Shown here in pieces: positions 18,158 through 63,986 of a stretch of 64,000 nt of DNA. Position 1 is the stretch's first letter, and every line of letters starts with the position of its first letter. The notes below the pieces were generated by a model, which was not told the origin of the DNA, ran no database searches, and saw only the letters and a list, made by a program, of their open reading frames with translations. The position numbers and the translations under genes are program-made. Source of the stretch: Octopus sinensis (Eukaryota); contig NC_042997.1 in the NCBI RefSeq assembly GCF_006345805.1, positions 205,654,001 through 205,718,000 of the forward strand, in the 5' to 3' direction.

Positions 18158-18189
18158 GGTGTGTAAGATATTTGAGGACAGATTTATGT

Positions 18190-26222: not shown

Positions 26223-26450
26223 CTTTACTACTTCTGTATCTTGAGGATAAACCACAAAGCAAACGTCTTTGATCCGGCTTGAATTTAGATTTGAGTAGCT
26301 TTTCACTGCTTCATACATAGTTCTGGGTAGTTCTTCAACAGGGTACTTCAATACCCCAGCTCCTAATATAGGAAATGCAAGACTTTTTGCTCCCAATTCC
26401 TCAGCATTTTCCAGACAAGTGGTTATTATTTGAGTCAAGTTTGCCAGAAT
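26223..26450 (-). CDS. Macrodomain module 1, exon C (PARP14/15-like macro C-terminal half)
   Basis: ttattag| acceptor, |gttggt donor, 228 nt, phase 0-0; ILANLTQIITTCLENAEELGAKSLAFPILGAGVLKYP...IKDVCFVVYP. Confidence 0.9.
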
Positions 26451-27061
26451 CTAATAAGAAATAATTGTTTGGTAATTGATAATGAACATTTTATTAAATT
26501 ATTTTCTTATTACAGGAAGAAACCATTAAGTTGTAATAAATATATCCTCCTCTCACAACTCCTCTCACTCCTACCACTTCTAAACACAACTGTCATTCCT
26601 ATCACTCTTTAGTCCTGCAAGGGACAAGGCAACCTCACTCATGATGCTGCTACAATAAAACAGACTCAATCCACCATGTTAAATGGTTGGTGAATGAAGA
26701 GAGACAATGCAGACCCAAGAGGAGTCTTTAGTGTTGTTGAGGACATGACAACCTCTCTAGTGCTCGTGCCATGACAGAGAAAAACTCACCAATACAGACA
26801 GTAAAACAGAGAAATATGTTTTAATATAGTCTTATTTATCAGTCACATAACTGTTGTTAGGCCATGAGGCTTTTTTCCTTCTATTTATATATAAAAGTGT
26901 CCTGTTCATCGATATCTTCTGCTTCCTTCCAATGATAACTTGGAAGAACAAATATTAAACAGGATGCTGACATTTGCTTTATGATTCTCACACAACATGC
27001 ATAAGGTTCTCTTCAAACATTAACTGTTTCAATAAATCAATATTATATGATTGATACTTAC

Positions 27062-27289
27062 TTTATTAGAGGAATATTCATCCCAGGGAGGTAATGCCAG
27101 ATGAAATACATTCTTACAGTTGAGGTTATATCCTTTAGTGATGGCTATTTTAAATGTAGAAATACCTTGAGGATATTTCTGGTTACATTCATATTGTATC
27201 TGTGAACCAGCAGCATTGAGAATAGATTTGGAGATAGCACCACAGTTAAGCTGGAGTTCTTTATTGGTGCTGTTAACGATGACATCAAC
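27062..27289 (-). CDS. Macrodomain module 1, exon B
   Basis: ttttgtag| acceptor, |gtaagt donor, 228 nt; VDVIVNSTNKELQLNCGAISKSILNAAGSQIQYEC...ITKGYNLNCKNVFH (not in the ORF track). Confidence 0.92.
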
Positions 27290-27570
27290 CTACAAAAGTA
27301 ATTAATGGTAAACAACTAAGGAACATTCTGTGGAGAGAAGAGAGATACATTGTTGCAGTTGATAATGTTGTTAAGAAAGGCTCTACAGAATGGCTGTAGT
27401 AAGTTTGAGGTTGTTAAAGTTAGCAAAAGATATACTCAAGATATCAGATGTGAAGGAAATAAAATGTTTGAGTTAGATTGAGAAAATGTTTTAATTAACT
27501 GTAATGATTCCTCATTTGCAACTGAAATAACAATTAAACGTAAATATGTTAAGTGAATCTATTTACTCAC

Positions 27571-27707
27571 AGATGCATTAGAAATTGAATCAGTCGATAG
27601 TTGTATTTTGATGCCAGCATTTTCTCTGGATGTCTCATTAGTTCTGGGCTCCACAGAAGAGGTTTCCTTTTGCGAAACATGAAGAGATGTGTTTGATGAT
27701 GTGGTGT
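27571..27707 (-). CDS. Macrodomain module 1, exon A (Ser/Thr linker + first strand)
   Basis: ttttcag| acceptor, |gtgagt donor, 137 nt, phase 1-0; DTTSS...GIKIQLSTDSISNAS joins VDVIVN in frame. Confidence 0.85.
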
Positions 27708-28569
27708 CTGAAAATAATAAACAAATATCAACATATGTACACTTTATACACACACACACACACACATATGTCATCATCATTTAACGTCCGTATATGTATT
27801 TCATGTTTGGATTTGGTTTGCAAGATTCTTTATGTGAGTTTGTGTGTTGAAGCATATTCTGTTGTGTCTGGGGAGAGTCATTTTCTTTTGGTGCCTTATA
27901 ATTTAACATACTCACTGCCAAAAATTTCCACTTATTTCTCCTTTTTATTTTGTTCAAATTTTCATTGCATCTTGCAACCTTTTCAATAGTCTTGACTCTG
28001 TCCGTTATTTACACTGCGTTCCTTTTTGTTTGTTTGTGCGCATGTGTGTGGGTCAGTGTGTGTGTGTGTCTATGCATGCATGTGTGTGTGTATGCATATG
28101 TATATATGTATGTATGTGTGTGCATCTGTATGTATGTAATCTGCATATTCATGTGCTTGCATGTCCGTGTTTGCGTATGTTTTGTGTATGTGTGTGTGAG
28201 TGTGTTTGTGTATATATGCACCTCTGTCTCCTTGTGTGTGTGTGTGTGTGTGTTTTGCCACTTTGTACCATGTTTGTATGTATGGATGTGCATTTCTATA
28301 TGTGTGGACACGTATCTCCATATGTGTCCTTGTGTGGAGTAAAGCGTGTGTGTACATATGTTCTTGTGTTTCAGTATCCATTTGTGTATGTGTGCCTGTT
28401 TGTTCATATAACCTATGTACCTATCCATCTGTATGTTGATCTGTTTATTTTCATATCCATATGCTTACATACATGTGCATATACACATATGTACCCACAC
28501 ACACACACATACATACCTCAATCTACATAACAGCCCACTAACTATTCTACTCTACCTGTGTAAACTGTG

Positions 28570-29640
28570 GGTATGGGCGTATGGTATCTACCATGTATAT
28601 TTCCTATTTAGTATTAGGAAAGTTTCATTTATAAGGACGTACTCCCGTATTTGTCTGAGTGTTGGGTCTTTTGATTGCTTGGATGAGATGCAGATGTCAA
28701 GTTGACCCAAGTTGCCTCCATGATGGTCTTTGGGATGTTGGTAGAGTATGGAGGACTGCTTTTTGTTGTCATATTGTCTCAAATGTTCATTTAGTCTTTC
28801 AGCTATGCTCCTAGATGTCTCCCCTATGTAAGTCATGTTCATGTCTTTACAGGCACCTTCTAAGCATCATATGCTGTAAACTACATTTCGAGTTCTACAG
28901 TTAATGCCAGGGCTAATCCTACATACCATGCAGTTATCATTGGTGCATATGGTATTCTTAAAGGGGTACGTCCTACATAGTTATGATCTGACGGAGTTCC
29001 CTGGCTTTTCAACAATCTTAATGTCGGGTTTGGTCTCCTTCAGAGCTTCCCTAAATCTACAGGCTAGTTCTCCATGGGATTTGGCCTCTACAAACATCAC
29101 TCCTTGATATTTCTCACTTTTATACCATGTGTTCACCCCGTTTGCTTTGTCACAAGTTCTTTGTATCCTATTCCATTCTTTGTTTCTATATCTAGGGCAG
29201 CTACCACTGGTATCATTACGTATAATGTTATCAGATTTATTTCTAGCACCCCTGTACACTCGAACCCTATCTTTTTGATCATATCCAGAGAACTGCATGC
29301 GGTGCATGAAGTTCTGTATGTGTTTTGTCGTTTCATAGGGTTCGCATAGTGGGGACACATTGTTCATTATTCTAATTAAGTCTGCTATCAGTATGGTTTA
29401 ATTTCCATGTTGTATGAGAAAGGTGAGTTCTTGTGAACGACATAGTTTGAAGTTATGGGTTCCATGTAATAAGAGTGGAGGAGCTGCACTCTTTTGTTCA
29501 CAGTCTCTAACCCAAGTTCAGTATCAAGTACAGGGAGTCCATTGTTGGGGTGCTTAGTGGGGTTTAATCTATAGTTACCTTGATACTTTGGTGGATGGAG
29601 TTAGCTATTTGCTGGAGGCTCTCCATTACGTTCTTCTCAG
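28570..29640 (-). mobile_element. Penelope-like element remnant (RT thumb + GIY-YIG)
   Basis: LPVLD, RMQFSGY, CRTRNVVYSI*C, YIGETSRSIAERLNEH. Confidence 0.8.
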
Positions 29641-29798
29641 TTTCTACATTAAGCGGACATTTCACCAGTGAGTGTGTAAAATTATAAGGCACAAAAAGAA
29701 AATGACCCTCCCCCGAGACACAACAGTATATATATATATATATATATATAAGCAACAGTAACTTCAAAAACCAGCCAACCATACACTTAACGCTTTAC

Positions 29799-29940
29799 CA
29801 GTCTGGGGTGCACATAGGCCAAATTGACTAAATCATTAGTTTTATTTGGATGCCATCATATTTTCTGGATGTCACTTTAGTTCTGGGTGTCATAGAGGAC
29901 GATTCCTGTTGAGGACTAAGAAGGTCTGATGGTTTGGTTC
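29799..29940 (-). pseudogene. Exon-A-like paralogous exon with in-frame stop (unit 1)
   Basis: ttttcag| acceptor; GTKPSDLLSPQQESSSMTPRTKVTSRKYDGIQIKLMI*SI aligns to exon A; 3' end uncertain. Confidence 0.6.
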
Positions 29941-30089
29941 CTGAAAATTAACAAATATAAACATACATACACACACACAAACATACACATTTTCAATCAT
30001 AAAGTCTGCTCTATTCTTTAGGTTGTGCTTCTCATTCTGATATATGTTATATTGATAATTCATATATATATATATATATCTTAGCTGGG

Positions 30090-30620
30090 CATAAGAACCA
30101 TCAGATGTGGTGTACAAGAGAGACAACTGCACACGACATCTGAAGAAGTTCCAATCTCTACCAGTGGGAGGAAGCTGTAGAAGAGGGAGGCCCAGGAAGA
30201 CATGGAATGAGGTGCTTAAGCATAATCATCAAATGATGGGCTACATGGAAGCAATGACTAGTGGTCGAGACCTTTGGCGATATGTCATACTTGAGAAGAC
30301 ATATCAAGCCAAATGAAATCATAGCTGTGGTCTTTGTAGGTGTCACCTACCTGCCAGCCATGCCAGTCTCACGTAAAAAGTACCATTTGGGGGTTGTGCC
30401 TCATAGAGGCCATGTGGTTGATGCTGGCATCATGTATCTAGCATCCATGCTGGTGGTAAATAAAAGCAGCCATTACATTGGTGGTTAGGAAAGGTATCCA
30501 GCTGTAGAAACCATACCATGTCAGACTGGAGATGGTGTAGCCCCTCACCTTGCCAGCCCCAGTCAAACCGTCCAACCCATGCCAGCATGGACAATGGATG
30601 CTAAATGATGATGATCATGA
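30090..30620 (+). mobile_element. Old RTE 3' fragment and tail
   Basis: GSCRRGRPRKTWNEV, then tail ending in (GAT)n. Confidence 0.8.
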
Positions 30621-32363
30621 TGTACATACGTATAGGCATGCCATCATCAGCATTATCCCCATCTACATTTCATGTCCATGCTGGCATAAGTTGAACAAAA
30701 TGATATATAAAGACACATTTGTCACAGCAAAAGTCATGTCCAAAAACTGTGATATATATTCCTGTCCATGCTGGGCCTTACGCCCACATTTGCCCCTGTG
30801 AAGCATCCCCTTCACCACATCTCATCTTCCTAACACCCACCCCTCTATTATACTCTTCTAACTATGGTCCTACTTTACTGCTGTAACCATTTGAGAGCAT
30901 TCATCACCACCCAAACCCTTTCATTAATACCAGTTGCATCTCTTTCATCATCATCTCCATCCATACAACCTTCCATCGATCATCCCTTTCTGTCCCTTCC
31001 CTAATCTTTCCCACCCATCCCTCTTAGCTACACCTTACTCTGCCAGGTTTCCTGTTGAACACTTCTCCTATCTGCAATCATTCTCAACACCCTCTCACAG
31101 CCATTGCTAATAATCCCTCCAATTTTCTGGCCCCACTCACTATAGCCACCCCCATGTATCTCTGACTCCCATCTCTTTCACAGTTCATCATCTCTGCTTT
31201 CCCTCTGCTGTCAGATCCTGGTCTTCATCTCTCTTCCTCCTCATCTATCAACAGATTGATGATTCTGCTGCTCTCCACCCTTCCTCTGAGGCTTTTTGTC
31301 ACCTCCTCCTTTCCGAGCCCCGTCAGTCTATCAACTCCACCTCAAACCATTGTTCCTCACTCTCTACAACCACCTCAAGCCCCATCTCTAACCTCTGCAC
31401 TTTTCATCTCACACTCTGATGCCATTACCCTCCCATTCCTTCTTTACTCATCCACAGTCTCCCTTATACTCCCCTTCTTGTAACTTGGGACTATGCTCTG
31501 GCACTCTATTACCACCATCTTTCTTCCTTCCAGATACTGTCATGCACCTTTGCATAAATATAAGGACGCCACGAGTCTCCTCTAGATCTATGTGCTTAAG
31601 CCTCTGGCAAACTTTAGACTTTCTAGCCCTGGCCTCAAGCCACCTCCCCACTCCCCAGTTCCATCAGGGGGCTTGCAAGATACTTGGTAACCTCACCAGT
31701 GCTGGTGCCATGAGAAAAGCAGGTTCCAGTCCACACTCTAAAATGGTTGGCATTATGTTGAGTATTCTAACTCTGAATATTCTTCGACCAAAGTAGATGG
31801 GGATGACAATGTGTTTGTCCCTTGCTAGGATGGCCGTCCAGTTATTTTTGGTCTCCTCCTCTGAGACAGACTGCACTTTGACAGTCCCATATTTCTTTCT
31901 TTAACCTGGCTACGTAGGCTTTGCTTTTCTAAACTGCTTCTAGGTATTTCTCTATTTGCTGCTGTGTTGCCTGCTCCACTTCCCTTCTTTTGACTTCAGT
32001 TGTTTTATATAGGACTGTCCACAAATTAATTTTTTGCGGGGCCAGTTCTATGAATGTTTAATACCATTTTTCTGCTACATTTTGCACTCTTGAATTCATT
32101 TCCATCAATAAAAAATGTCTTCACTTAATTCTGTGGTTACTCTTGCAAAGTTGAAATTGTTACGACTAGATTTGCATGTCTCATTCTTCCTCATTTTCTC
32201 TCTCTCTCTCTCCTCTTGTTTTTCCTCTGCCTAGGTAACCAAATACCTCCTTCACACCAGCACACCAATTTATGGCCTTTTTTGCGTACCTCTTTCTCTG
32301 TCCCTCGGTAACCATGTCTCTCCTCTATAGCAAGACATCTCTCTCTGCTTCTTTATTTCTCCG

Positions 32364-32826
32364 TCACACTCTAACACTTCATCATCTACTACTGGATCAC
32401 CTCCTCCAATGCCCTCTCTGCTATGGCAAGACCCCTCTTTCTGTCTCTCTGTCACACTCTAACACTTCATCATCTACTACTGGATCACCTCCTCCAATGC
32501 CCTCTCTGCTATGGCAAGACCCCTCTTTCTGTCTCTCTGTCACACTCTAACATTTCATCATCTACTACTGGATCACCTCCTCCAATGCCCTCTCTGTTAT
32601 GGCAAGACCCCTCTTTCTGTCTCTCTGTCACACTCTAACATTTCATCATCTACTACTGGATCACCACCTCCAATGCCCTCTCTGTTATGGCAAGACCCCT
32701 CTTTCTGTCTCTCTGTCACACTCTAACATTTCATCATCTACTACTGGATCACCACCTCCAATGCCCTCTCTGTTATGGCAAGACCCCTCTTTCTGTCTCT
32801 CTGTCACACTCTAACCTTTCATCATC
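32364..32826. repeat. 88-bp minisatellite, ~5 copies (unit 1)
   Basis: tcacactctaacatttcatcatctactactggatcacctcctccaatgccctctctgttatggcaagacccctctttctgtctctctg repeated. Confidence 0.95.
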
Positions 32827-33289
32827 TGACACAAGCTCTCCTCTTGCCCCTCTCATAATTCATTATCTTGGTGACCCTGCCAGCACTGGTGCCATGTAAA
32901 AAGCATCCACTGCACACTGTGAAATGGCTTGCATTTGGAAGGGCATCTAGCTGCAAAAATAATGCCAAAACTAACTTTGTTGTGCTAGTTCCACGTAAAA
33001 TGTACTGAGTCCACTCTGCTGAGTGGTTGGTGTTAGGAAGTGCATCCAGCTGTAAAATTCCTGCCAAACAGACAGAGTAGCGAAGGGTAGTTATTTTCCA
33101 CCTTGCCGGCTCCTGTCAACTGTCCAATCCATGCATGCTTAGAAAACAGATGTTAAACGATGATGATGATGATGATGTTGGCAGTGGTACTGGCAAACCT
33201 GCTGCAGCTGCACCTGATAACACAGGAACTTGAGGTAAACATGAATTCTGATCACGAACAGCCGACGAGAGAGAAGAAACCCTACTCCG

Positions 33290-34180
33290 TATGGAATTAC
33301 ATGGTCAGTTCCACTGTGGAACCAACAAATTAAAAGACAAAGAAGCATCATAGAGGTGGCGCAACAAGGGTGACCTAATCAAAAATACTGAAAGCCTAAT
33401 CATTTGGGCCCAGGACTCAGTGGAAAAGAATATATACCACACAAGTGCAACGGATCTCTGCAGAATGTCTAGGAAGAGGGTTGAAAGTGTGACTCACTGT
33501 TAGTGCTTGAGAAAGTCATGCGCAGGAAGAGTACATGCGTAGACACGACAAAGTAGCCCAAAACCTCCACTGGCTACTATGCCATAAGTATGGATATGAG
33601 GTTATGGGTGCTTGGTACCAACATACACCAAAAAAAGTAATGAACGAAAAGGGGAAGGCAAAAATCCTCTGGGACTTTGATTTCCAGACAGACAAAGTGT
33701 TAGAGAACTGAAGGCCAGATATAGAAACCTTTAGAAGGGACAAACAAAAGTGCCAAATAATCGATTTGGCAGGGCCAGGAGATCAACACATCATCATGAA
33801 ATAAAGAGAAAAAGGTTGATAAATATGGAAACCTGAGAATTGAGATTGCTAAGATGTGGCAGGTACAAGAGTCGAACATAAAGGTTATCCCTATTGTCAT
33901 TGGAGAATTGGGTTCATTACGATCCAAACTGAAAAAAAACATCTGAAGTCCTTAGAGATACTCCGCAATCTAGATGTATTGCAAAAGTCAGCATTACTTG
34001 GAATTGTGTAAAGTATTGTCTGCCAGAGGTCCTTCTTGTGACTTGACAAACACTGCAAACCCCGAGTAGACACAATATCTTCGATCAACAATCTCACGAT
34101 ATTGTATACTGTGCCACATCTATAATAATAATAGCAATCATAATAATAATAGTAATAATAATAATAATAATAATAATCAT
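33290..34180 (+). mobile_element. R4/Dong-like non-LTR 3' remnant (CCHC + restriction-like endonuclease) ending in (TAA)n
   Basis: CRM, RRHDKVA, KILWDFDFQTD, RPDI, IID, KVIPIVIG, LQKSALLG; frameshifted. Confidence 0.8.
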
Positions 34181-34209
34181 TAATCATTAATAATTAATAA
34201 TAATCATCA

Positions 34210-34580
34210 TCATTATTTAGTGTCCGCTTTCCATGCTAGCATGGGTTGGACCGTTCAACTGGGGTCTGGGAAGCCAGAAGGCTGCACCAGGCGCAGTCTG
34301 ATCTGGCAGTGTTTCTATGGCTGGATGCCCTTCCTAACGCCAACCACTCCGTGAGTGTAGTGGGAGCTTTTTACGTGCCACCGGCACAGGTGCCAGACGG
34401 GGCTGGCAACGGCCACGATCGGATGGTGCTTTTTATGTGCCACCGGGACAGATGCCAGACGGGGCTGGCAAACGGTCATGGACGGATGGTGCTTTTTACG
34501 TCCACCGGCACGGGGGCCAGTCGGGCGGTGCTGGCAACGGCCACAGTCGGATGGTGCTTTTTATGTGCCACCGGCACAGA
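34210..34580 (-). mobile_element. RTE tail/SINE copy
   Basis: Homologous to 12061-12600. Confidence 0.85.
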
Positions 34581-35101
34581 ATGATAATAATGATATTAAC
34601 ATTAATCATATTTATAATAAACAGTGTTTAATAGAGACGGTGTGACAAAACACCATAATATTCAATATCAACAAACAAATTGTTTACCTTTTGAATGAAA
34701 TCTTTCCTTTTCCTGTTTATTCATCATTCCTTCATTTTCGCCTTTATTTTGGAGATATTCTTCAAATTTCTGCAAAATTTAAAACCATGAGAATCATTTT
34801 TGTTTAATTTTTTGCTTTTTTTAAAGAGAAGAGATTTAATTTAACAAAAGACAAACAAAATATTTAAAATATTTAATGATTTATTTCTAATCAGTAATAA
34901 GGAAATAAGGAAAATTACTTTGTCACTCAGATCAAAGATATTCCATCCACGACCTTCCAGTCTACTGGGAGACATGGTGTTATAGTGGATGTGGCAGAAA
35001 AACCTTCCACTGTGACCACTGATGTGGTGTTAGTGAAGTTAAACATGTGGCAATGGTGTCTTCATGTAGCTGAAGTTGTATTGTTTCTTCTCTCCACTCA
35101 C

Positions 35102-35183
35102 CATTCTCATTAAAACTGCTGAGTCTTGTGTTTGCTGTTGAAATGTCTATCAAGAATGTTGAAGTTGAGGTTCTTTGGTGCAT
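35102..35183 (-). CDS. Candidate linker exon D (unit 1)
   Basis: Strong aatg|gtgagt donor in phase 1; acceptor either aag| at 35184 (82 nt, phase 0-1) or gatag| at 35147 (45 nt, phase 1-1); frame open in both units. Confidence 0.45.
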
Positions 35184-36479
35184 CTTGTGTAGCCAAGAAT
35201 ATTTGAGGAACAAAAGCAGAGAACAAGGTAATTATTTTCATATTGTAAGCAAGAAGGAGGAGGTGGAGGAGGTCCAACAATTAGGGTCATGGTCATTCAT
35301 AAGAGAGATGACAAAGGAAAAGAGAAAAGATTCAAAAAGAAAGAACTTCACAAACAGTTCTACAGTGGACAGGAATTTCCCCTATTTCTTCATTACAGCA
35401 TATGGACATAAAGAATGCCTTTTGGTATTAACACTGCTTCTGTTGCTATTAATTATCTTTAATAAGCCTTCAGGCTATTTGTGACATCAGTGTCTATATA
35501 TCGTTGACAGGGAGATTTGGCTGTTATGTTGCTACAGGGTGTCTGTCACTGATGAACCTGAGCAGAGCGAAAATACATGATCTGGCAGTTCTGGTGCCTT
35601 TAGAAGATGATTGTTGTCTACCAACAATATAAATTTGCATGCATTTATGGACCGTACGTCCATATGAGAGGTCCTCTCAAGGTAAATAAGGCAGTATTTG
35701 AGGTTCTAACACAACATCCACATTTAGTTGGATATAAAGATTGCTTTTGGTATTAATACTGCTTCTGTTGCTATTACTTTTAATTACCTTGATTTAGGTT
35801 CAGTCTCAATGTATGGCACCTTGAGCAAGTGTCTTTAACTATAGCCTTAGGCCAATCAAAGCTCTGTGATTGAGTCTGGTAGGCAGTAAATGAGAGACGC
35901 CATTCATACATATGTGTGTGTGTCTCCTTGCCTTTACATTATTTGTTAGCTATAAACGAGTGTCCCTGTTATGCAAGCAGTGTCCTTTGTTTCTAATAGT
36001 TTGTGATGTTCTTTAAAATGCAGAAATAGTTACCTCCCTTGGAATGGGGTGAGGGTTGGTGACAGGAAAGGCATCAAGCCATAGAATATCTAACTCCACA
36101 AATTCTATTGCACATGGGTTGTGGTGGTGGTGGTGGTGGTGGTGGTGGTGGTGACGGAGATGATGGTGATGAATAGGATGCATTCTGTTCTCATTACTTT
36201 TATTGTATTTTTTCAAAAGCTGTTACTGAAATTTTATGATCATCATCATCATCATAAATATATAAGAATGTATTTATGTGCATGTCATTAGACAGAACCT
36301 AAAGCATTTTATATTTGAGCCTCGATCTGTCCCCCTCTTTCACGTATAGGCCTCACCCTGTTCTGTTCGGCCTTCTCCAATGGTGATGGGGAAAATGCAA
36401 ACAACTTTTGACAGAAAAATAAATTCAGTTGAGCTGCCCTTCCCCCACAAAATGGATGACAAAACAGGAAGAACAAACA

Positions 36480-36757
36480 CACCGGTCAACCGCAGTTAAT
36501 GACATTTTGATTCATTTACTGCTTCTCTTAACACTCTTTTAAATAACACTTGCAGGAAAATTTTTTTCCCAATTTTTCCTTCAGTTCTTCTGTAGACTTG
36601 TTTTTAACGTGACAACCATTTATTTTATTGCAGTAAAGATTTACAGGGAGGTACCATAAATTGAATAGTTCTAGCCAATCTGTACCAAACAGATAAATAA
36701 TTTTGCTTCATGTGTCTCTCCTCGAAATGTGACATCGATACATGTTTTCTCCATCAA
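36480..36757 (-). mobile_element. Gypsy (Mag-like) pol remnant
   Basis: LFGTDWLELFNLWYLPVNLYCN. Confidence 0.6.
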
Positions 36758-36759
36758 AG

Positions 36760-37140
36760 CTTTATATGGAAGAGTATGAAAAGTACTGGCATGGGTGGAC
36801 ATCAACAGAGGACTTTTCCAGGGGGACAGTGTGTCTCCACTGATTTCTTTTCACTGTGAATAAAACTCCTTAAGTGAAATACAGCAGATGACAAAGTTGG
36901 GGTTTGATGTGGGAAGAGGTAAGCAAAAACTTTACCAGCAGGCATTCAGGAATGACTCAAAATTGTTAACAAATAGTGAGACAGAACTGGACAGCTTAAT
37001 CCAGTCTGTGCAGATTTTTGTGAATGATATCAAGATGGAGTTTGGACTCTCAAAATGTGCTACAGTGGTGATGAGACCAAGTAAGCTTGCCAGGACAGAA
37101 GGCATACTGATGTCATGTGGGGAAATTTATAAAATGATTC
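36760..37140 (+). mobile_element. R4/Dong-like RT fragment
   Basis: INRGLFQGDSVSPL; ELDSLIQSVQIFVNDIKMEFGLSKCA. Confidence 0.75.
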
Positions 37141-37241
37141 CAGATTCTTGTTTCTATTTTCTTCATTTCTTGACGAATATGCTTTTGGTAAATTCCAAAG
37201 ATATCAACATCAAACAACAAACAACAAAAACATCAACCAAC

Positions 37242-37469
37242 CTTTGCTATTTCTCTGTCTTCTTCAGGTAAAACCACAAAGTAAACATCTTTGATCTGGC
37301 TTGAATTTTGATCTGAGTAGTTTTTCACTGCTTCATACATTGTTCTGGGTAGTTTTCCAATGGGGTATTTCATTTCAGCCCCTAATATAGGAAATGCCAG
37401 GCTTTTTGCTCCCATTCTCTCAGCATTTTCCAGACAAATGGTTATTATTTGAGTCAAGTTTGCCAGAAT
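37242..37469 (-). CDS. Macrodomain module 2, exon C
   Basis: AG/GT bounded, 228 nt; ...SLAFPILGAEMKYP...IKDVYFVVLP. Confidence 0.88.
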
Positions 37470-40665: not shown

Positions 40666-40818
40666 CTACATTAAGCGGACATTTCACCGGTGAGTGTGTA
40701 AAATTATAAGGCACAAAAAGAAAATGACCCTCCCCCGAGACACAACAGTATATATATATATATATATATAAGCAACAGTAACTTCAAAAACCAGCCAACC
40801 ATACACTTAACGCTTTAC

Positions 40819-54000: not shown

Positions 54001-55886
54001 TCTGTCTCTCTGTCACACTCTAACCTTTCATCATCTACAACTGGATCACCACCTCCAATGCCCTCTCTGTTATGGCAAGACCCCTCTTTCTGTCTCTCTG
54101 TCACACTCTAACATTTCATCATCTACTACTGGATCACCTCCTCCAATGCCCTCTCTGTTATGGCAAGACCCCTCTTTCTGTCTCTCTGTCACACTCTAAC
54201 ATTTCATCATCTACTACTGGATCACCACCTCCAATGCCCTCTCTGTTATGGCAAGACCCCTCTTTCTGTCTCTCTGTCACACTCTCACATTTCATCATCT
54301 ACTACTGGATCACCTCCTCCAATGCCCTCTCTGTTATGGCAAGACCCCTCTTTCTGTCTCTCTGTCACACACTAACATTTCATCATCTACTACTAGATCA
54401 CCACCTCCAATGCCCTCTCTGTTATGGCAAGACCCCTCTTTCTGTCTCTCTGTCACACTCTCACATGTCATCATCTACTACTGGATCACCTCCTCCAATG
54501 CCCTCTCTCTTATGGCAAGACCCCTCTTTCTGTCTCTCTGTCACACTCTAACATTTCATCATCTACTACTAGATCACCACCTCCAATGCCCTCTCTGTTA
54601 TGGCAAGACCCCTCTTTCTGTCTCTCTGTCACACTCTAACATTTCATCATCTACTACTGGATCACCTCCTCCAATGCCCTCTCTGTTATGGCAAGACCCC
54701 TCTTTCTGTCTCTCTGTCACACTCTAACATTTCATCATCTACTACTGGATCACCTCCTCCAATGCCCTCTCTGTTATGGCAAGACCCCTCTTTCTGTCTC
54801 TCTGTCACACTCTAACCTTTCATCATCTACTACTGGATCACCTCCTCCAATGCCCTCTCTGTTATGGCAAGACCCCTCTTTCTGTCTCTCTGTCACACTC
54901 TAACCTTTCATCAACTACTACTGGATCACCACCTCCAATGCCCTCTCTGTTATGGCAAGACCCCTCTTTCTGTCTCTCTGTCACACTCTAACATTTCATC
55001 ATCTATTATTGGATCACCTCCTCCAATGCCCTCTCTGCTATGGCAAGACCCCTCTTTCTGTCTCTCTGCCACACTCTAACCTTTCATCATCTACTACTGG
55101 ATCACCACCTCCAATGCCCTCTCTGTTATGGCAAGACCCCTCTTTCTGTCTCTCTGTCACACTCTAACATTTCATCATCTACTACTGGATCACCTCCTCC
55201 AATGCCCTCTCTGTTATGGCAAGACCCCTCTTTCTGTCTCTCTGTCACACTCTAACCTTTCATCATCTACAACTGGATCACCACCTCCAATGCCCTCTCT
55301 GTTATGGCAAGACCCCTCTTTCTGTCTCTCTGTCACACTCTAACATTTCATCATCTACTACTGGATCACCTCATCCAATGCCCTCTCTGTTATGGCAAGA
55401 CCCCTCTTTCTGTCTCTCTGTCACACTCTAACATTTCATCATCTACTACTGGATCACCACCTCCAATGCCCTCTCTGTTATGGCAAGACCCCTCTTTCTG
55501 TCTCTCTGTCACACTCTAACATTTCATCATCTACTACTGGATCACCTACTCCAATGCCCTCTCTGTTATGGCAAGACCCCTCTTTCTGTCTCTCTGTCAC
55601 ACTCTAACATTTCATCATCTACTACTGGATCACCACCTCCAATGCCCTCTCTGTTATGGCAAGACCCCTCTTTCTGTCTCTCTGTCACACTCTAACATTT
55701 CATCATCTTCTACTGGATCACCTCCTCCAATGCCCTCTCTGCTATGGCAAGACCCCTCTTTCTGTCTCTCTGTCACACTCTAACCTTTCATCATCTACTA
55801 CTGGATCACCTCCTCCAATGCCCTCTCTGTTATGGCAAGACCCCTCTTTCTGTCTCTCTGTCACACTCTAACCTTTCATCATCTGA
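48034..55886. repeat. 88-bp satellite array, ~89 copies (unit 2)
   Basis: Same monomer as 32364-32826; ORF-track periodicity is 88 nt. Confidence 0.98.
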
Positions 55887-56539
55887 CACAAGCTCTCCTC
55901 TTGCCCCTCTCATAATTCATTATCTTGGTGACCCTGCCAGCACTGGTGCCATGTAAAAAGCATCCACTGCACACTGTGAAATGGCTTGCATTTGGAAGGG
56001 CATCTAGCTGCAAAAATAATGCCAAAACTAACTTTGTTGTGCTAGTTCCACGTAAAATGTACTGAGTCCACTCTGTTGAGTGGTTGGTGTTAGGAAGTGC
56101 ATCCAGCTGTAAAATTCCTGCCAAAACGGACACAGTAGCGAAGGGTAGTTATTTTCCACCTTTCCGGCTCCTGTCAACTGTCCAATCCATGCATGCTTAG
56201 AAAACAGATGTTAAACGATGATGATGATGATGTTGGCAGTGGTACTGGCAAACCTGCTGCTGCCACCAGCATGGCAGCTGTTTTCTCGCTGTTGTTGTCA
56301 CTTTTTCTCATTAATTTCTTTTGTTCCTGTGATGGTGAAATGGGATGACAGAAGCAAGGCAAAATCGCTTTCCTAGGCCTCACATGCACTATTGTTGATG
56401 TTGTTGTTGCTTTTAAGACTTGGCTGTTCTCTCTTCTGGGGGACCAGCTCTTCTTTTCAATGGATGAACAATTCTCGTTCCCCACCCTTGTTTTTTAGCC
56501 CAAACAATTACCAGAATGGCCCCTAAAGGCTACACATGT

Positions 56540-57620
56540 GGGAAAACTAAAATGACGTCATTTTGCTTGGGAAGGATTGCCAGATAGTTTAATTAAATTC
56601 TTGCATTTCTGTGACTTTTATGCTAAAAACTGTGGCTTTAAGTCCAACATAAAATTTACGTCTAGTTTTTCAAAAACTAGCATTGATTATTTGGACACAA
56701 AAGTTAAGTTTTCTGGAGGCAGAATAGTGACAGAGTTACTTTGCAAGCCCATGTCATCCTACATTTACTCCCACCACCGATCATCCACAGCATATAATTT
56801 GGTCAAATCCCAAATCCCAATAGTTGAGGATAAAACAGATTCGTACTGACATAAGGGATTACTAGAAACATGCAAATGTTTTTGCACATCATTATGTCAA
56901 ATGCAGTTACAGTGAATCACGATTAATGGAAACAGCAAATGACATAGCTAAGATTAGCCAAGAAAGTTAAGCCCAATTCACACATAATTTTAGCAAACAC
57001 AATAGAATGTGTGACAGAAATGCTTTAGTGATTAACTGGCATCAAAATTTCACTGGCATTTCAAAAGCGTTGAAAGAAAGTTACCAGCATGTTGCAGAAA
57101 AATATCCTTGTTTCAAACAAATATTTCTTCAGCCACCCATTGTAGCCATTCGACAGAGTATAAGGGACCTTTTAACCTCTACTTCTAACTCCGAGAAAAC
57201 TAACATTGGGGTATCTGCACGCAGTACCTTGAAAAACAGCCGCAAGAGAGGTAAGCCCTCTTCATTGCGCAACAACATGAGTCAAGTCAGGAATCATAAC
57301 AGAAATGTTATGATTTATACAGAAGGTGGGAAATGTAGAGCTTTACATTTTGCCGTGTTCATGGCAGAATGCACGAAATGCAACTTGGTTTATGTTGGTT
57401 GCACAACAGAACAATTAAACAAAAGACTTAATTGGCACAGATATGATGTCAAGCACAATAACAGTAGTTGGACAGAACTTGCCGAATATTTTGCATCAAA
57501 TGGCTGCAATTTTGAAACAGACTTGAAAGGGCATGATGAGTTATTACCATCACGCCCTGGAGGAATGAATAAAATGACAGGAGAATTTCATCATATTTAC
57601 ACAAAACTATTTGATTAAAT
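56540..57620 (+). mobile_element. Degenerate Penelope-like element (RT + GIY-YIG)
   Basis: IKFT, IDYLDT, CKP; ECTKCNLVYVGCTTEQLNKRLNWHR. Confidence 0.8.
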
Positions 57621-57931
57621 ATGCTTCTTTGTTTTCCTTTCCTTTCTCTTTCAGTCTTTTCCTTTTTGCTGGTTGTAAACTTGAAAATTGAAGATTGATG
57701 ATGTCATTCCATCAACATGAGAATGCTGGTTGCCTCGTTCAAATTTTGGATTTGAATTTCTATAATTTTGAATTTCTATGTATCACTTTACATTTTGAAC
57801 TCAACAAAGCGAAGCAAGCTGTCAGAATATCGTGCAAACCAAAAGAATATCTATTGCAATCACATCGTGATCTTTGTATTGTCTATTTACGTTTGTGAAG
57901 AGTTATGCCAATCCTTTTTAAATCCTTTTAA

Positions 57932-57967
<36 letters not shown>

Positions 57968-58169
57968 TTTTAAAAATTTTATCATTATCCCCATCACAGT
58001 TGTAGTGGTGGTGATGGTGACAATGATAAAAATAAAAATAATGATAATATACTGCAGCTGCTAATACTACAAATACTACAACAGCTACTATTCTGATAGC
58101 ACAGGAACTTGAGGGTAAACATGAATTCTGATCACGAACAGCCGACGAGAGAGAAGAAACCCTACTCCA

Positions 58170-59000
58170 TATGGAATTACATGGTCAGTTCCACTGTGGA
58201 ACCAACAAATTAAAAGACAAAGAAGCATCATAGAAGGTGACCTAATAAAAAATATTGAAAGCCTAATCATTTGGGCCCAGGGCTCAGTGGAAAAGAATAT
58301 ATACCACACAAGTGCAACGGATCTCTGCAGAATGTGTGGGAAGAGGGCCGAAAGTAATGCTTGAGAAAGTCTTGCGCAGGAAGAGTTCAAGCGTAGACAC
58401 GACAAAGTAGCCCAAAACCTCCACTGGCTACTATGCCATAAGTATGGATATGAGGTTATGGGTGCTTGGTACCAACATACACCAAAAAAAGTAATGAACG
58501 AAAAGGGGAAGGCAAAAATCCTCTGGGACTTTGATTTCCAGACAGACAAAGTGTTAGAGAACTGAAGGCCAGATATAGAAACCTTTAGGAGGGACAAACA
58601 AAAGTGCCAAATAATCGATTTGCCAGGGCCAGGAGATCAACACATCATCATGAAATAAAGAGAAAAAGGTTGATAAATATGGAAACCTGAGAATTGAGAT
58701 TGCTAAGATGTGGCAGGTACAAGAGTCGAACATAAAGGTTATCCCTATTGTCATCGGAGCATTGGGTTCAATACCATCCAATCTGAAAAAACATCTGAAG
58801 TCCTTAGAGATACCCTGCAATCTAGATGTATTGCAAAAGTCAGCATTACTTGGAATTGTGTAACGTATTGTCTGCCTAAGGTCCTTCTTGTGACTTGACA
58901 AACACTGCAAACCCCGAGTAGACACAATATCTTCGATCAACAATCTCACGATATTGTATACTGTGCAACATCTATAACAATAATAGCAATCATAATAATA

Positions 59001-59052
<52 letters not shown>
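58170..59052 (+). mobile_element. R4/Dong-like RLE remnant (duplicate of 33290-34180)
   Basis: CRMCG, RRHDKVA, ILWDF, IPIVIGALG, then (TAA)n. Confidence 0.8.
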
Positions 59053-59054
<2 letters not shown>

Positions 59055-59570
59055 CCAGATCTGACTGGACTGGTGCAGCTTTCGGGCTCCCCAGACCCCA
59101 GTTGAACCGTCCAACCCATGCTAGCATGGAAAGCGGACGTTAAATGATGATGATGAATAATAATAATCATTAATCATTAATAATTAATAATAATCATCAT
59201 CATTATTTAGTGTCCGCTTTCCAAGCTAGCATGGGTTGGACCGTTCAACTGGGGTCTGGGAATCCAGAAGGCTGCACCAGGCCCAGTCTGATCTGGCAGT
59301 GTTTCTATGGCTGGATGCCCTTCCTAACGCCAACCACTCCAGGAGAGTAGTGGGTGCTTTTTACGTGCCACCGGGACAGGTGCCAGACGGGGCTGGCAAA
59401 CGGCCATGGACGGATGGTGCTTTTTAAGTTCACCGGCACGGTGGCCAGGCAAGGCTGGCAACGGCCAAGATCGGATGGTGCTTTTTATGTGCCACCAGCA
59501 CGGAGGCCAGTGGGGCGGTGCTGGCAACGGCCACAGTCGGGTGGTGCTTTTTACGTGCCACCGGCACAGA
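59053..59570. mobile_element. Two tail-to-tail RTE-tail/SINE copies (59053-59156 +, 59200-59570 -)
   Basis: gttgaaccgtccaacccatgctagcatggaaagcggac and its reverse complement ~60 bp apart. Confidence 0.8.
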
Positions 59571-60065
59571 ATGATAATAATGATAATAACATTAATCATA
59601 TTTATAATAATCAGTGTTTAATAGAGACGGTATGACAAAACACCATAATATTCAATATCAACAAACAAATTGTTTACCTTTTGAATGAACTCCTTCATTT
59701 TCGGCTTTATTTTGGAGATATTCCTCAAATTTCTGTAAAATTCAAAACCATGAGAATCATTTTTGTTTAATTTTTTTGCTTTTTTTAAAGAGAAGAGATT
59801 TAATTTAACAAAAGACAAACAAAATATTTAAAATATTTATTGATTTCTTTCTAATCAGTAATAAGGAAATGAGGAAAATTACTTTGTCACTCAGATCAAA
59901 GATATTCCATCCACGACCTTCCAGTCTACTGGGAGACATGGTATTGCAGTGGATGCGGCACAAAGACCTTCCACACTGACCACTGATGTGGTGTTAGTGA
60001 AGTTAAACATGTGGCAATGGTGTCTTCATGTAGCTGAAGTTGTATTGTTTCTTCTCTCCACTCAC

Positions 60066-60147
60066 CATTCTGATTAAAACTGCTGAGTCTTGTGTTTGCT
60101 GTTGAAATGTCTATCAAGAATGTTGAAGTTGAGGTTCTTTGGTGCAT
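60066..60147 (-). CDS. Candidate linker exon D (unit 2)
   Basis: Duplicate of 35102-35183 with the same donor and acceptors. Confidence 0.45.
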
Positions 60148-61399
60148 CTTGTGTAGCCAAGAATATTTGAGCAACAAAAGCAGAGTACAAGGTAATTATT
60201 TTTTGATATTATAAGCAAGAAGGAGAAGGAGGAGGTCCAACAATTAGGGTCATGGTCATTCATAAGAGAGATGACAAAGGAAAAGAAAGAACTTCAAAAA
60301 CAGTTCTACAGTGGACAGGAATTTCCCTAATTTCTTCATTACAGCATATGGACATAAAGAATGCCTTTTGGTATTAAAACTGCTTCTGTTGCTATTAATT
60401 ATCTTTAATAAGCCTTCAGGCTATTTGTGACATCACTGTCTATATATCGTTGACAGGGAGATTTCGCTGTTATGTTGCTACAGGGCGTCTGTCACTGATG
60501 AACCTGAGAAGAGCGAAAATACATGATCTGGCAGTTCTGGTGCCTTTAGAAGATGATTGTTGTCTACCAACAATATAAATTTGCATGCATTTATGGACCG
60601 TACGTCCATATGAGAGGTCCTCTCAAGGTAAATAAGGTAGTACTTGATGTTCTAACACAACATCCACATTTAGTTGGATATAAAGATTGCTTTTGATATT
60701 AATACTGCTTCTGTTGCTATTACTTTTAATTACCTTGATTTAGGTTCAGTCTCAATGTATGGCACCTTGAGCAAGTGTCTTTAACTATAGCCTTAGGCCA
60801 ATCAAAGCTCTGTGATTGGGTCTGGTAGGCAGTAAATGAGAGACGCCATTCATACATATGTGAGTGTGTCTCCTTGCCTTTACATTATTTGTTAGCTGTA
60901 AATGAGTGTCCCTGTTATGCAAGCAGTGTCCTTTGTTTCTAATATTTTGTGAAGTTCTTTAAAATGCAGAAATAGTTACCTCCCTTGGAACGAGGTGAGG
61001 GTTGGTGACAGGAAAGTCGTCAAGCCATAGAATATCTAACTCCACAAATTCTATCGCACACAGGTGGTGGTGGTGGTGGTGATGGAGATGATGGTGATGA
61101 AGAGGATGCATTCTGTTCTCGTTACTTTTATTGTATTTTTTCAAAAGCTGTTACTGTAATATCATCATCATCATCATCATAAATATATAAGAATGTATTT
61201 ATGTGTATGTCATTAGACAGAACCTAAAGCATTTTGTATTTGAGCCTCGATCTCTCCCCCTCTTTCACATATAGGCCTCACCATGTTCTGTTGGGCTTTC
61301 TCCAATGGTGACGGGGAAAATGCAAACAACTTTTGACAGAAAAATAAATTCAGTTGAGCTGCCCTTCCCCCACAAAATGGATGACAAAACAGGAAGAAC

Positions 61400-62195
61400 A
61401 AACACACCGGTCAACCGCAGTTAATGACATTTTGATTCATTTACTGCTTCTCTTAACACTCTTTTAAATAACACTTGCAGGAACATTTTTTTCCCAATTT
61501 TTCCTTCAGTTCTTCTGTAGACTTGTTTTTAACGTGACAACCATTTATTTTATTGCAGTAAAGATTTACAAGGAGGTACCATAAATTGAACAGTTCTAGC
61601 CAATCTGTACCAAACAGATGAATAATTTTGCTTCACGTGTCTCTCCTCGGAATGTGACGTCGATAAATGTTTTGTCCATCAAATGTAATCTGTCGCCCGT
61701 TACACCACATGCTATTTTCGCTGTTTTGCGTAATCTCAGTTTACCAATTTTTCCCAAGTATCTGCATTTATAATGAAGATGTCACTACCTGCATCTAACT
61801 GTAATTTGGTATTCACATCATTTATCTTTCATGCACGAATTTTCTTGTTTCTCCATCACAATCGATCTCCGCTGAAAACATCTTAGAACTTATTGTATTT
61901 GAGCTTTGCTGTCTTGTTCTACAATGAGAACTCCTGTGTCCCAGCTTATGACAACTATAGCACTTTTTGTTTTTAAAAGGACAATCCTTTTCGTAGTGTA
62001 GGCCTCCATAACCATAACACAGTTTGGGGCCTGATACTTTTTTGGATTCTGTTTTCCAGGGCAACACATTTGAAGTTTTGCAGATGTCTTTATCCGGCAT
62101 TATTTTCACATCATTTACTATAGTCTGACATTCTTCAGTGAGGGTCTGTAGAGATGAATCCTGGTTTGCTTGCTCCATTTTCAAAAGAATCCTTG
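61400..62195 (-). mobile_element. Gypsy (Mag-like) gag-pro remnant
   Basis: ORF 61822-62184 with zinc knuckle CYSCHKLGHRSSHC; LFGTDWLELFNLW downstream. Confidence 0.75.
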
Positions 62196-62199
62196 CCTG

Positions 62200-62420
62200 G
62201 TAAAAACTTTACCAGCAGGCATTCAGGAATGACTCAAAATTGTTAACAAATAGTGAGACAGAACTGGACAGCTTAATCCAGTCTGTGCAGATTTTTGTGA
62301 ATGATATCAAGATGGAGTTTGGACTCTCAAAATGTGCTTCAGTGGTGATGAGACCAAGAAAGCTTGTCAGGACAGAAGGCATATGGATGTCATGTGGGGA
62401 AATTTATAAAATGATTCCAG
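62200..62420 (+). mobile_element. R4/Dong-like RT fragment
   Basis: ELDSLIQSVQIFVNDIKMEFGLSKCA. Confidence 0.7.
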
Positions 62421-62518
62421 ATTCTTGTTTCTATTTTCTTCATTTCTTGCAGAATATGCTTTCGGTAAATTCCAAAAATATCAACATCAAACAACAAACA
62501 ACAAAAACATCAACCAAC

Positions 62519-62746
62519 CTTTGCTATTTCTCTGTCTTCTTCAGGTAAAACCACAAAGTAAACATCTTTGATCTGGCTTGAATTTTGATCTGAGTAGTTT
62601 TTCACTGCTTCATACATTGTTCTGGGTAGTTTTCCAATGGGGTATTTCATTTCAGCCCCTAATATAGGAAATGCCAGGCTTTTTGCTCCCATTCTCTCAG
62701 CAGTTTCCAGACAAGTGGTTATTACTTGAGTCAAGTTTGCCAGAAT
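62519..62746 (-). CDS. Macrodomain module 3, exon C
   Basis: AG/GT bounded, 228 nt; nearly identical to module 2 exon C. Confidence 0.88.
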
Positions 62747-63344
62747 CTAAAAAAAATAATTGTTTAGTAATTGATAATGAACATTTTATTAAATTATTTT
62801 CCAATTACAGGAAGAAACCATTAAGTTGTAATAAATATATCCTCCTCTCACTCTTACCACTTCTAAACACATCTGTCATTCCTATCACTCTTTCGTCCTG
62901 CAAGAGACAAGGCAACCTCACTCATGATGCTGCTACAATAAAACAGACCCCATCCACCGTGTAAAATGGTTGGTGAATGAAGAGAGACAATGCAGACCCA
63001 AGAGGAGTCTTTAGTGTTGTTGAGGACATGACAACCTCTCTAGTGCTCGTGCCATGACAGAGAAAAACTCACCAATACAGACAGTAAAACACAGAAATAT
63101 GTTTTAATATAGTCTTATTTATCAGTCACATAACTGTTGTTAGGCCATGAGGCTTTTTTCCTTCTATTTATATATAAAAGTGTCCTGTTCATCGATATCT
63201 TCTGCTTCCTTCCAATGATAACTTGGAAGAACAAATATTAAACAGGATGCTGACATTTGCTTTATGATTCTCACACAACATGCATAAGGTTCCCTTCAAA
63301 CATTAACTGTTTCAATAAATCAATATAATATGATTGATACTTAC

Positions 63345-63572
63345 TGAATCAGAGGAATATTCATTCCAGTAAGGTAATGCCAGATGAAATACATTCTTAC
63401 AGTTGAGCTTATATGCTTTAGTGATGGCAATTTCAGATGTAGAAATACTTCGACGAAATTTCTGGTTACATTCATCTTGTATCTGTGGACCAGCAGCATT
63501 GAGAATAGATTTGGAGATAGCACCAATGTTAAGCCGGAGGCTTCTATTGGTGCTGTTAACGATGACATCAAC
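63345..63572 (-). CDS. Macrodomain module 3, exon B
   Basis: AG/GT bounded, 228 nt, open; VDVIVNSTNRSLRLNIGAISKSILNAAGPQIQDEC... Confidence 0.9.
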
Positions 63573-63849
63573 CTAGAAAAGTAATTAATGGTAAACAGCA
63601 AAGGAACATTCCATGGAGAGAAAAGAGATACATTGTTGCAGTTGATATTGTTGTTAAGAAAGGCTCTTTCAGAATGGCTGTAGTAAGTTTGAGGTTGTTA
63701 AAGTTAGCAAAAGATATACTCAAGATATCAGATGTGAAGGAAATGTTTGAGTTTGATTGAGAAAATGTTTTAATTAACTGTAATGATACCTCATTTGGGA
63801 ATGAAATAACAATTAAACGTAAATATGTTAAGTGAATCTATTTACTCAC

Positions 63850-63986
63850 AGATGCATTAGAAATTGAATCAGTCGATAGTTGTATTTTGATGCCAGCATT
63901 TTCTCTGGATGTCTCATTAGTTCTGGGTGCCACAGAAGAGATTTCCTTTTGCGAAACATGAAGAGATGTTTTTGATGATGTGGTGT
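63850..63986 (-). CDS. Macrodomain module 3, exon A
   Basis: AG/GT bounded, 137 nt. Confidence 0.85.

Follow-up and report, generated by a model that had tools for sequence, protein, structure and literature searches.

What gene do the repeated macrodomain exons of this octopus locus belong to, and why have they multiplied? The window, i.e. the whole stretch of DNA that was analyzed (64,000 nucleotides of Octopus sinensis contig NC_042997.1, positions 205,654,001 to 205,718,000), carries an array that a first-pass annotation described as three-exon modules of a macro-PARP-like gene, changing in number like an accordion. We assign a probability of roughly 0.7 to a reading in which the window covers the central part of an octopus PARP14-like gene and tandem, frame-preserving copies of macrodomain 2 (MD2), diversifying in exon B, would act as predicted ADP-ribose readers feeding a mono-ADP-ribosyltransferase (mono-ART), likely in immune defense.

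The repeated module and its gene

All nine exons of the three A-B-C sets (137, 228 and 228 nt) are found on the minus strand with AG/GT ends, and each set has a stop-free translation in one of three frames, as the first-pass annotation had it. Exon A (module 3, 63850..63986; module 2, 38589..38725; module 1, 27571..27707) encodes a linker and the first macrodomain strand, and the hypervariable exon B (63345..63572, 38080..38307 and 27062..27289, in the same order) encodes the N-terminal half of an MD2-type macrodomain, including loop 1. Exon C is of an internal type in modules 3 (62519..62746, with loop 2 one residue shorter) and 2 (37242..37469), and of a terminal type with an intact Gly-x-Gly loop 2 in module 1 (26223..26450); the second loop-2 Gly is present in module 1 and absent in modules 2 and 3. 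In a profile search with a Pfam Macro (PF01661) cut-off of 22 bits, exon B of all three modules (E 3e-10 to 3e-12) and exon C of module 1 (27.9 bits) score above the threshold, but exon C of modules 2 and 3 stays under it (13.6 and 15.8 bits). The array was also said to run off the window end; exon A of module 3 starts 14 bases from that end, and the RefSeq model has more modules upstream (modules flanking the window were read from RefSeq proteins only). A degenerate exon-A copy, A' (29822..29940, minus strand), retains an acceptor but has an in-frame stop and no donor where expected, and a second lies at ~40842-40960; the stop rules out A' as a functional exon.

The module has four exons rather than three. 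A, B and C sum to 593 nt, which is not divisible by 3, and joining C directly to the next A gives 28 stops, so a linker exon, D, overlooked in the earlier reading, is required to restore the frame. It measures 82 nt after module 2 (34688..34769, minus strand) and 55 nt after module 3 (59678..59732, minus strand), the 27-nt length difference being in frame, and both copies run from phase 0 to phase 1. Splicing the 11 exons (A-B-C three times plus two D) yields 638 residues with zero stops, and exon C contains two compensating 3-nt indels. The A-B-C-D module begins and ends in phase 1, and whole modules can therefore be gained or lost in frame.

Junction use in transcripts, on which the first-pass annotation had made its reading depend, finds backing in contigs from four runs that we took, by guess, to be RNA: the C-D join with GT-AG ends appears in 4/4. 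Because these contigs were aligned at 85% likeness, the whole family is pooled and the support for the junction is family-wide; the join with short D is not copy-specific, as the paralogue P0045 has a similar linker. Position 38202 carries a base private to exon B of module 2; its share of the depth is no more than 23 of 7442 units in run X15 and 24 of 214 in X17, and runs X7 and X14 lack it. With phases closing through D and the C-D join present in RNA-type contigs, a set of separate small genes was rejected.

The 638-residue product matches residues 507-1144 of XP_029633854.1 (P0001) exactly, which upholds the proposed macro-PARP-like identity: this is the RefSeq model of O. sinensis PARP14 isoform X1, and it has a PARP catalytic domain (PF00644; E 1e-32 to the PARP14 ART). 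The annotation had reported no WWE or PARP catalytic exons, and this is correct for the window, though not for the ART domain in the RefSeq gene model. Queries taken from the C-terminal ends of 18 paralogues and the N-terminal ends of 6 matched nothing in the window beyond exon D and macrodomain cross-matches, so that no exon for a catalytic, WWE or KH domain was found, and positions 1-26222, downstream of the array, contain no further exon of the gene; the link from array to ART thus rests on the predicted RefSeq model. Sister genes of two species also carry an ART domain after the terminal module.

XP_029633854.1 has four internal-type modules (one partial) and one terminal macrodomain. It begins inside an N-terminally truncated MD1 and includes one half module, and it is probably incomplete. 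Only 21 residues separate its last macrodomain from the ART domain and PF02825 is not listed, so no WWE is present. Neither RRM nor KH occurs in this model, which starts within MD1; PF23085, which we take to be an RRM family, is listed for the sister genes P0009, P0015, P0018 and P0045. The ART domain keeps the His and Tyr motifs and has Ile opposite the Leu of human PARP14, at the position taken to be that of the third catalytic-triad residue. Its residues are those of a mono-ART (non-polymerizing) type, a predicted activity that follows the Leu-for-Glu rule for mono-ART enzymes given in PMC13224862.

Module type and duplication history

Among PDB entries the module is matched best by the second domain in 3vfq and 3q71 (E 1.6e-24), and in a tree of macro-PARP domains the MD2/MD3 split (SH-aLRT 99) places the octopus modules with MD2, none of them joining the MD3 clade. 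The 56 octopus modules form one clade (support 100/99); the outgroups in that tree are long-branched and unreliable, so the MD2/MD3 assignment depends on the PDB matches and the MD2/MD3-split tree. Both lines support identifying the module as PARP14 macrodomain 2, of reader type and with predicted binding, MD3 being absent. In 56/56 modules the loop-1 Asn is invariant, and so is the Gly that corresponds to human G1044. Hydrolase macrodomains have a Gly-rich loop 1 and an aromatic residue in loop 2 (PMC10221186; bioRxiv 10.64898/2026.08.12.744356). The octopus modules have a single loop-1 Gly, and all 56 close loop 2 with Leu or Met, which does not fit a MacroD/MD1-type hydrolase and agrees with the reader type originally proposed. 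A loop-2 deletion is found in 11 of the 56 modules, in both species.

Modules 1 and 2 are spaced 11.0 kb apart (duplication unit 1, 26128..37149, ~11.0 kb) and modules 2 and 3 25.3 kb apart (unit 2, 37150..62426, 25.3 kb with inserts). Since ~13.9 kb of the larger spacing consists of inserts, the underlying unit is again ~11 kb; the ~11-kb duplications described earlier hold at this level but not for the spacing as it stands. Present in unit 2 only are a LINE retrotransposon (41327..45971, plus strand, antisense to the gene; ORFs of 405 and 949 aa encoding endonuclease and reverse transcriptase, with an ATT tail) and an insert with a weak GIY-YIG ORF (56264..58092), which may be Penelope-like. 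An 88-bp VNTR has 89.3 copies in unit 2 (48028..55884) and 5.3 in unit 1 (32358-32827).

Modules 2 and 3 are mutually closest relatives and both have private residues, while exon C of module 1 belongs to an older lineage (pS 0.16 vs C2 and C3). Among the octopus paralogues, gene models have 0-5 modules each. Modules 1-3 of P0002 and P0006, from assemblies of two species, match in order at 97-99%; an O. vulgaris orthologue of the expanded window gene was not found, the best match being 84-88%. Duplication of MD2 recurs independently in other molluscs and in a hemichordate. These comparisons support an accordion of the kind first suggested, as change in module number that appears between genes and between species. 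Unequal crossing-over is the likely source of the tandem copies of the four-exon MD2 module. An older gene may have had two modules, internal and terminal, as in P0012 and P0009, with the internal one amplified recently and one exchange point in the B-C intron of module 1.

Probable diversifying selection on exon B

Exon B differs by 9.6-11.0% between the window copies, while its flanking introns differ by 1.8-4.7%. The three-copy count gives 33 nonsynonymous vs 3 synonymous changes (omega 3.4-3.7, one-sided p 0.011-0.019, with heuristic counts at multi-hit codons), and maximum likelihood gives an omega of 3.6 (LRT p 0.016 with F3X4, 0.007 with F1X4). The nonsynonymous rate is 4.1x the intron rate (p 2e-9) and the synonymous rate equals it (p 0.73). 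The test uses three DNA copies, with exon B chosen after inspecting three exons, and the internal N-vs-S result is borderline once corrected (~0.02-0.05). No significant nonsynonymous excess was found in exons A and C of the three copies, and family-wide entropy in B (0.60) is not above that in C (0.63). Exon B of the window gene shows omega > 1, read here as diversifying selection, a new signal that the first-pass annotation had not noticed.

The changes are not spread evenly: 10 of the 33 fall within the 10 codons of loop 1, the distal-ribose loop (p 0.008), and 0 of the 33 in the 12 codons of the Gly and helix 1 (p 0.003). B2 and B3 have some residues that occur in none of the 52 modules examined from other genes, which rules out import from the sampled paralogues. 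A-to-I editing is excluded as a source, since the differences are genomic.

With Asn, Gly and helix 1 held constant the pocket would be preserved, and variation in the neighboring loop-1 residues could fit changing ADP-ribosylated targets or evade an antagonist. In the internal modules, where the phosphate loop is shortened, binding may be weak; they could contribute avidity or serve as decoys. Diversified B exons would in this way retune predicted readers that feed the mono-ADP-ribosyltransferase, and the locus is likely an immune ADP-ribose reader multiplied and retuned against pathogens, with binding and immune role both predicted.

Alternative explanations and known systems

Could modules 2 and 3 be highly divergent alleles, kept by balancing selection on exon B and assembled in tandem? 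C2 and C3 are just 1.3% apart, one 2.5-kb spacer block differs by 1.1%, spacer differences are of the indel type typical of haplotypes, and the expanded gene has no O. vulgaris orthologue in view. However, other spacer blocks are 4-7% apart, the four internal-type modules of the model, of which one is partial, and its terminal module exceed what two alleles can supply, and a sister array keeps the same order in two independent assemblies. We consider false duplication quite unlikely, and the selection signal holds even if it occurred. Decay is less likely still: the extra modules would be by-products of a recombination-prone cluster, and the exon-B excess would reflect relaxed constraint together with introns homogenized by gene conversion. 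The loop-2 residue lost from internal modules, their sub-threshold exon C, the debris (A' pseudo-exons and the half module) and the scant copy-specific RNA signal fit such a history, but relaxation yields an omega of at most 1, not 3.6, and exon-B synonymous sites evolve at the intron rate. In addition, neither the core strands nor helix 1 show any change, frame and splice sites are intact in 11/11 exons, the exon C indels and the D length difference keep the frame, and the loop-2 deletion is shared between species.

A real, selected array might instead owe its divergence to something other than a pathogen, its copies coming to read different ADP-ribosylated proteins of the host in signaling linked to stress, DNA damage or transcription, which we regard as unlikely. 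PMC13224862 describes PARP14 roles in genome stability and transcription and notes that MD2/MD3 targets are not known even in humans, and an octopus PARP14-like protein is up in captivity with no defined infection, according to PMC11431876. Conflict accounts better than stable specialization for the repeated turnover, the hypervariability of the surface loops and the fact that many lineages amplified independently, and in PMC8195618 Aplysia PARP14 lies in a co-expression module interpreted as immune. A bolder form of the pathogen-driven reading, which we consider unlikely, is that octopus macro-PARPs together make up a diversified system of intracellular recognition. Phase-symmetric MD2 modules with hypervariable loop-1 residues would be amplified in the germ line and then recombined by splicing, which would give each animal a reader repertoire for pathogen-specific ADP-ribosylation, with loop-2-deleted copies as decoys. 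RefSeq isoforms X4, X5 and X7 leave out modules or join them as A/B or B/C hybrids, for which the short-read support may represent mis-mapping.

The preferred reading, an amplified and retuned MD2 reader, would point to an ongoing conflict between host and pathogen over ADP-ribose in cephalopods, and to MD2 amplification as a strategy that invertebrates have used repeatedly. No interferon system is known from octopus. The gene was already annotated, and duplication and selection are established for vertebrate macro-PARPs; here selection singles out particular loop-1 residues of an MD2 domain, and the natural variants (three window copies, 56 family modules) can be used for testing the basis of reader specificity.

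Human PARP14 (ARTD8) has the order RRM/KH-MD1-MD2-MD3-WWE-ART, and possession of three macrodomains is considered ancestral for macro-PARPs. The octopus module resembles it in its MD2 type, the Asn-Ser start of loop 1 and the G1044-equivalent Gly, and the model has an MD1-like domain upstream and a mono-ART-type domain downstream. It differs in lacking MD3 and WWE, in carrying MD2 about five times and in the shortened loop 2 of internal copies; the canonical layout with MD1-MD2-MD3 and WWE is not that of XP_029633854.1. RefSeq names shorter isoforms of the window gene PARP15, and as in mammalian PARP15 (MD2-MD3-ART) the reader macrodomains lead directly to the ART without WWE. PARP15, with MD2 and MD3, is confined to mammals (PMC10221186, section 3.1), whereas the octopus gene has MD2 copies only, in an octopus-specific clade; PARP15 identity was rejected on these grounds, and the likeness is convergent. 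Further parallels are the octopus sister genes XP_036364520.1 (P0002), P0045, P0012 and CAI9716700.1 (P0009), which have the same module and linker in 1-5 copies per model; the window gene is set apart from them by modules 2 and 3 being nearest each other, with private residues. Elsewhere, Daugherty et al. 2014 (PMC4038475) describe positively selected macrodomains in primate macro-PARPs and duplicating macro-PARPs in primates and bats, and Perina et al. 2014 (PMC4245714) report that PARP14-like genes are clustered in lancelet and sponge. Gene birth and death, chromosomal clustering and positively selected macrodomains are, on these accounts, common to the octopus and those animals, in which, as far as these accounts go, variation is in gene number or among 1-3 macrodomains. 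In the octopus, unlike those systems, one reader module is amplified within genes, up to five times, and selection can be measured between the copies of a single gene.

Repeat structure and gene identity

The minus strand of the window carries three macrodomain-like exon sets (motif search and self-BLAST). As reported in the first-pass annotation, exons A, B and C measure 137, 228 and 228 nt in 3/3 copies and are bounded by AG and GT; every set is open in one of three frames; the macrodomain assignment passes the Pfam Macro cut-off for all three B exons and C1, but not for C2 and C3. The description of a three-exon module overlooked a linker exon, D. Exons A, B and C total 593 nt, with A starting in phase 1 and C ending in phase 0, which prevents one set from splicing straight to the next; set-to-set splicing without D is ruled out by 28 stops. 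Homologue mapping of the spacers placed D after module 2 (34769-34688, minus strand, 82 nt) and after module 3 (59732-59678, minus strand, 55 nt). Spliced in silico, the 11 exons including D encode 638 residues with no stop, so that what is repeated is a module of four exons with symmetric phases. A degenerate extra exon-A copy occurs in each unit (29822-29940 and 40842-40960, minus strand), left over from an earlier partial duplication.

The gene is real and already annotated: the spliced product matches, without a difference, residues 507-1144 of XP_029633854.1 (P0001), the predicted RefSeq model ‘PARP14 isoform X1’ of O. sinensis, in agreement with the suggestion of a macro-PARP-like gene. 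This predicted model runs from a truncated domain like MD1 (the first PARP14 macrodomain) through four full modules and one half module to a C-terminal catalytic domain (ART). The ART matches human PARP14 (E 1e-32), has Ile where PARP14 has Leu and is predicted to be of mono-ART type. The 26 kb of window beyond C1 yielded neither ART nor WWE nor any further downstream exon, as had been observed for WWE and PARP catalytic exons, so the ART link rests on the predicted model and sister genes. The best structural match of the module is the second domain of PDB entry 3vfq, and the module falls in the MD2 clade, separate from MD3 (SH-aLRT 99; quick tree, 63 rows). By the criteria in excerpts of PMC10221186 and bioRxiv 10.64898/2026.08.12.744356, hydrolase-type features are missing from the module, consistent with the proposed reader type. 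Judged from sequence, the product is most likely a mono-ADP-ribosyltransferase bearing a row of MD2 readers, both predicted.

Duplication units and mobile elements

Duplications of ~11 kb had been proposed. This length holds for unit 1 (26128-37149, 11.0 kb), but unit 2 reaches 25.3 kb with inserts because of a 4.6-kb LINE, an expanded VNTR and a 1.8-kb insert. The LINE (41327-45971, plus strand), antisense to the host gene, encodes endonuclease and RT in a pair of open ORFs of 405 and 949 aa and carries an ATT-repeat tail; it looks young, and its insertion postdates the duplication. The strongly strand-skewed 88-bp VNTR, a candidate location of unequal exchange, has 89.3 copies in unit 2 (48028-55884) and 5.3 in unit 1 (32358-32827). 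The insert found only in unit 2 (56264-58092) is possibly a Penelope-like fragment, with a weak GIY-YIG ORF under the cut-off (56971-57618, E 0.003).

Where aligned, spacer blocks are 93-99% identical between units. Over most of its length the B-C intron shows 0-4% difference between copies; C1 and its downstream flank diverge by 10-13% from the other copies, synonymous sites included (pS 0.16). By tree and identity comparison, the closest relatives outside the window gene are the two modules that the octopus models P0012 and P0009 (CAI9716700.1) each have. These sequences suggest an older internal-plus-terminal module pair, P0012/P0009-like, of which the internal module was amplified more recently; an exchange probably took place within the module 1 B-C intron.

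The intron downstream of the array contains an open mariner/Mos1-type transposase ORF (22505-23509, minus strand, 334 aa). More endonuclease/RT retroelement ORFs and fragments occur at 12751-15905 (minus), 10289-11972 (plus) and 6347-6946 (plus); a 727-aa retroelement ORF has a weak PHD/C1-like stretch beyond the RT. A SINE-like repeat is dispersed through the window (7422-7687, 12060-12600, 18189-18561, 34200-34580 and 59190-59570); its tails are tandem repeats of 62-66 bp, and its depth in the mapped sequencing runs is extremely high.

Divergence of exon B and signal in putative RNA runs

Exon B diverges by 9.6-11.0% between copies, compared with 1.8-4.7% in adjoining introns. The count over n=3 copies, with exon B picked after inspection and multi-hit codons counted heuristically, is 33 nonsynonymous vs. 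3 synonymous changes (omega 3.4-3.7; one-sided p 0.011-0.019), and omega is 3.6 under a codon model (LRT p 0.016 or 0.007). The nonsynonymous rate is 4.1x the intron rate (p 2e-9), from which the synonymous rate is not distinguishable (p 0.73). Exons A and C of the same copies have no significant nonsynonymous excess, and family-wide entropy is not higher in exon B than in exon C. Loop 1 (10 codons) holds 10 of the 33 changes (p 0.008), and the 12 codons directly after it, a Gly and helix 1, hold none (p 0.003). This invariant Gly (56/56 modules) corresponds to human G1044 by 3vfq offset arithmetic (from a portion of PMC10499325); the G1044 region of human MD2 contacts the distal ribose, according to a passage of PMC9477163. 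Modules 2 and 3 have 7 private residues each, absent from 52/52 modules of other genes.

Whole modules would be gained and lost by unequal crossing-over, permitted by phase symmetry. Selection would hold the pocket core constant and vary the surface beside the distal ribose, which may be the contact place for a modified target or antagonist. Vertebrate macro-PARPs (parts of PMC4038475 and PMC13224862) and co-expression in Aplysia (a section of PMC8195618) suggest, by analogy, an immune driver. A PARP14-like protein elevated in the mucus of captive octopus (extract of PMC11431876) is the single octopus mention found in open-access papers.

Four runs from three studies, RNA by guess (none recorded as RNA), were mapped to 33300-38800 at 85% likeness, pooling signal over the whole family. 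Exon joins were recovered in these putative RNA runs at family level: the C-D join with GT-AG ends in 4/4 runs, joins spanning the B-C intron in three and a short-D-to-A join in one. Exon bins are far deeper than neighbouring intron bins in three runs, with a modest excess in X17. The B2-private base at 38202 accounts for at most 23/7442 depth units in X15, 24/214 in X17 and 0 in X7 and X14, and the linker of octopus model P0045 is short too, similar to the window short D; the joins are therefore a family-level signal, not array-specific. In RefSeq isoforms X4, X5 and X7 (named separately from the runs) a module is left out, or exons from separate modules are spliced together in frame, and isoform models P0003, P0004, P0007 and P0058, placed on the window exons, have whole-module skips and in-frame A3-B2 and B2-C1 joins. 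Either combinatorial splicing or read mis-assignment could produce such models, which are treated as a lead only because short reads cannot be reliably assigned among near-identical exons; combinatorial splicing of variable readers seems quite unlikely.

Module number and comparison with other animals

The exon B search yielded 44 proteins out of 52 candidates, 39 of them named O. sinensis or O. vulgaris. From 53 proteins 94 near-full modules were cut, and removal of 11 isoform duplicates, 3 fish proteins and identical rows left a 62-row tree, in which 56 octopus-type modules (54 named Octopus) form a single clade (100/99). The suggested accordion is upheld as a difference among gene models: octopus models have 1-5 modules (five in P0045 and in P0002, XP_036364520.1), and the O. 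bimaculoides PARP14-like model P0091 has MD1 and ART with zero MD2 or MD3 modules, a value that could mark the lower limit of the accordion or come from a gap in the annotation. P0002 and P0006, from two species, agree in order over modules 1-3 at 97-99% identity, so such arrays are not confined to one assembly. No orthologue of the expanded window gene was found in O. vulgaris (best match 84-88%). A loop-2 deletion occurs in 11/56 modules, in both species.

MD2 has also been duplicated independently in Argonauta, Littorina, Gigantopelta and the hemichordate Glandiceps. Among 138 further representatives, drawn from top hits and biased to multi-domain proteins, 13 were counted as having four macrodomains and none as having five, and in 17 two macrodomains of one protein share at least 50% identity; ten of these representatives are named, from scallops, abalone, starfish, brittle star, hemichordate and cod. 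Independent within-protein macrodomain duplications were seen in P0066, P0063-P0065, P0068, P0147, P0175 and P0253, whose host groups are Argonauta, gastropods, a hemichordate, echinoderms and cod.

In the open-access literature, the scope of our search, neither amplification of MD2 nor selection on it was found described for cephalopod macro-PARPs. Three tandem macrodomains are the ancestral layout according to passages of PMC10221186, whose supplementary trees, from RefSeq metazoans, may include these octopus proteins, and a sponge has clustered duplicates with 1-3 macrodomains (excerpt of PMC4245714). The octopus gene belongs to the macro-PARP family in the broad sense; it is not PARP15 and, having neither MD3 nor WWE, departs from the canonical PARP14 layout. 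Octopus is the extreme of a recurrent pattern rather than a unique case.
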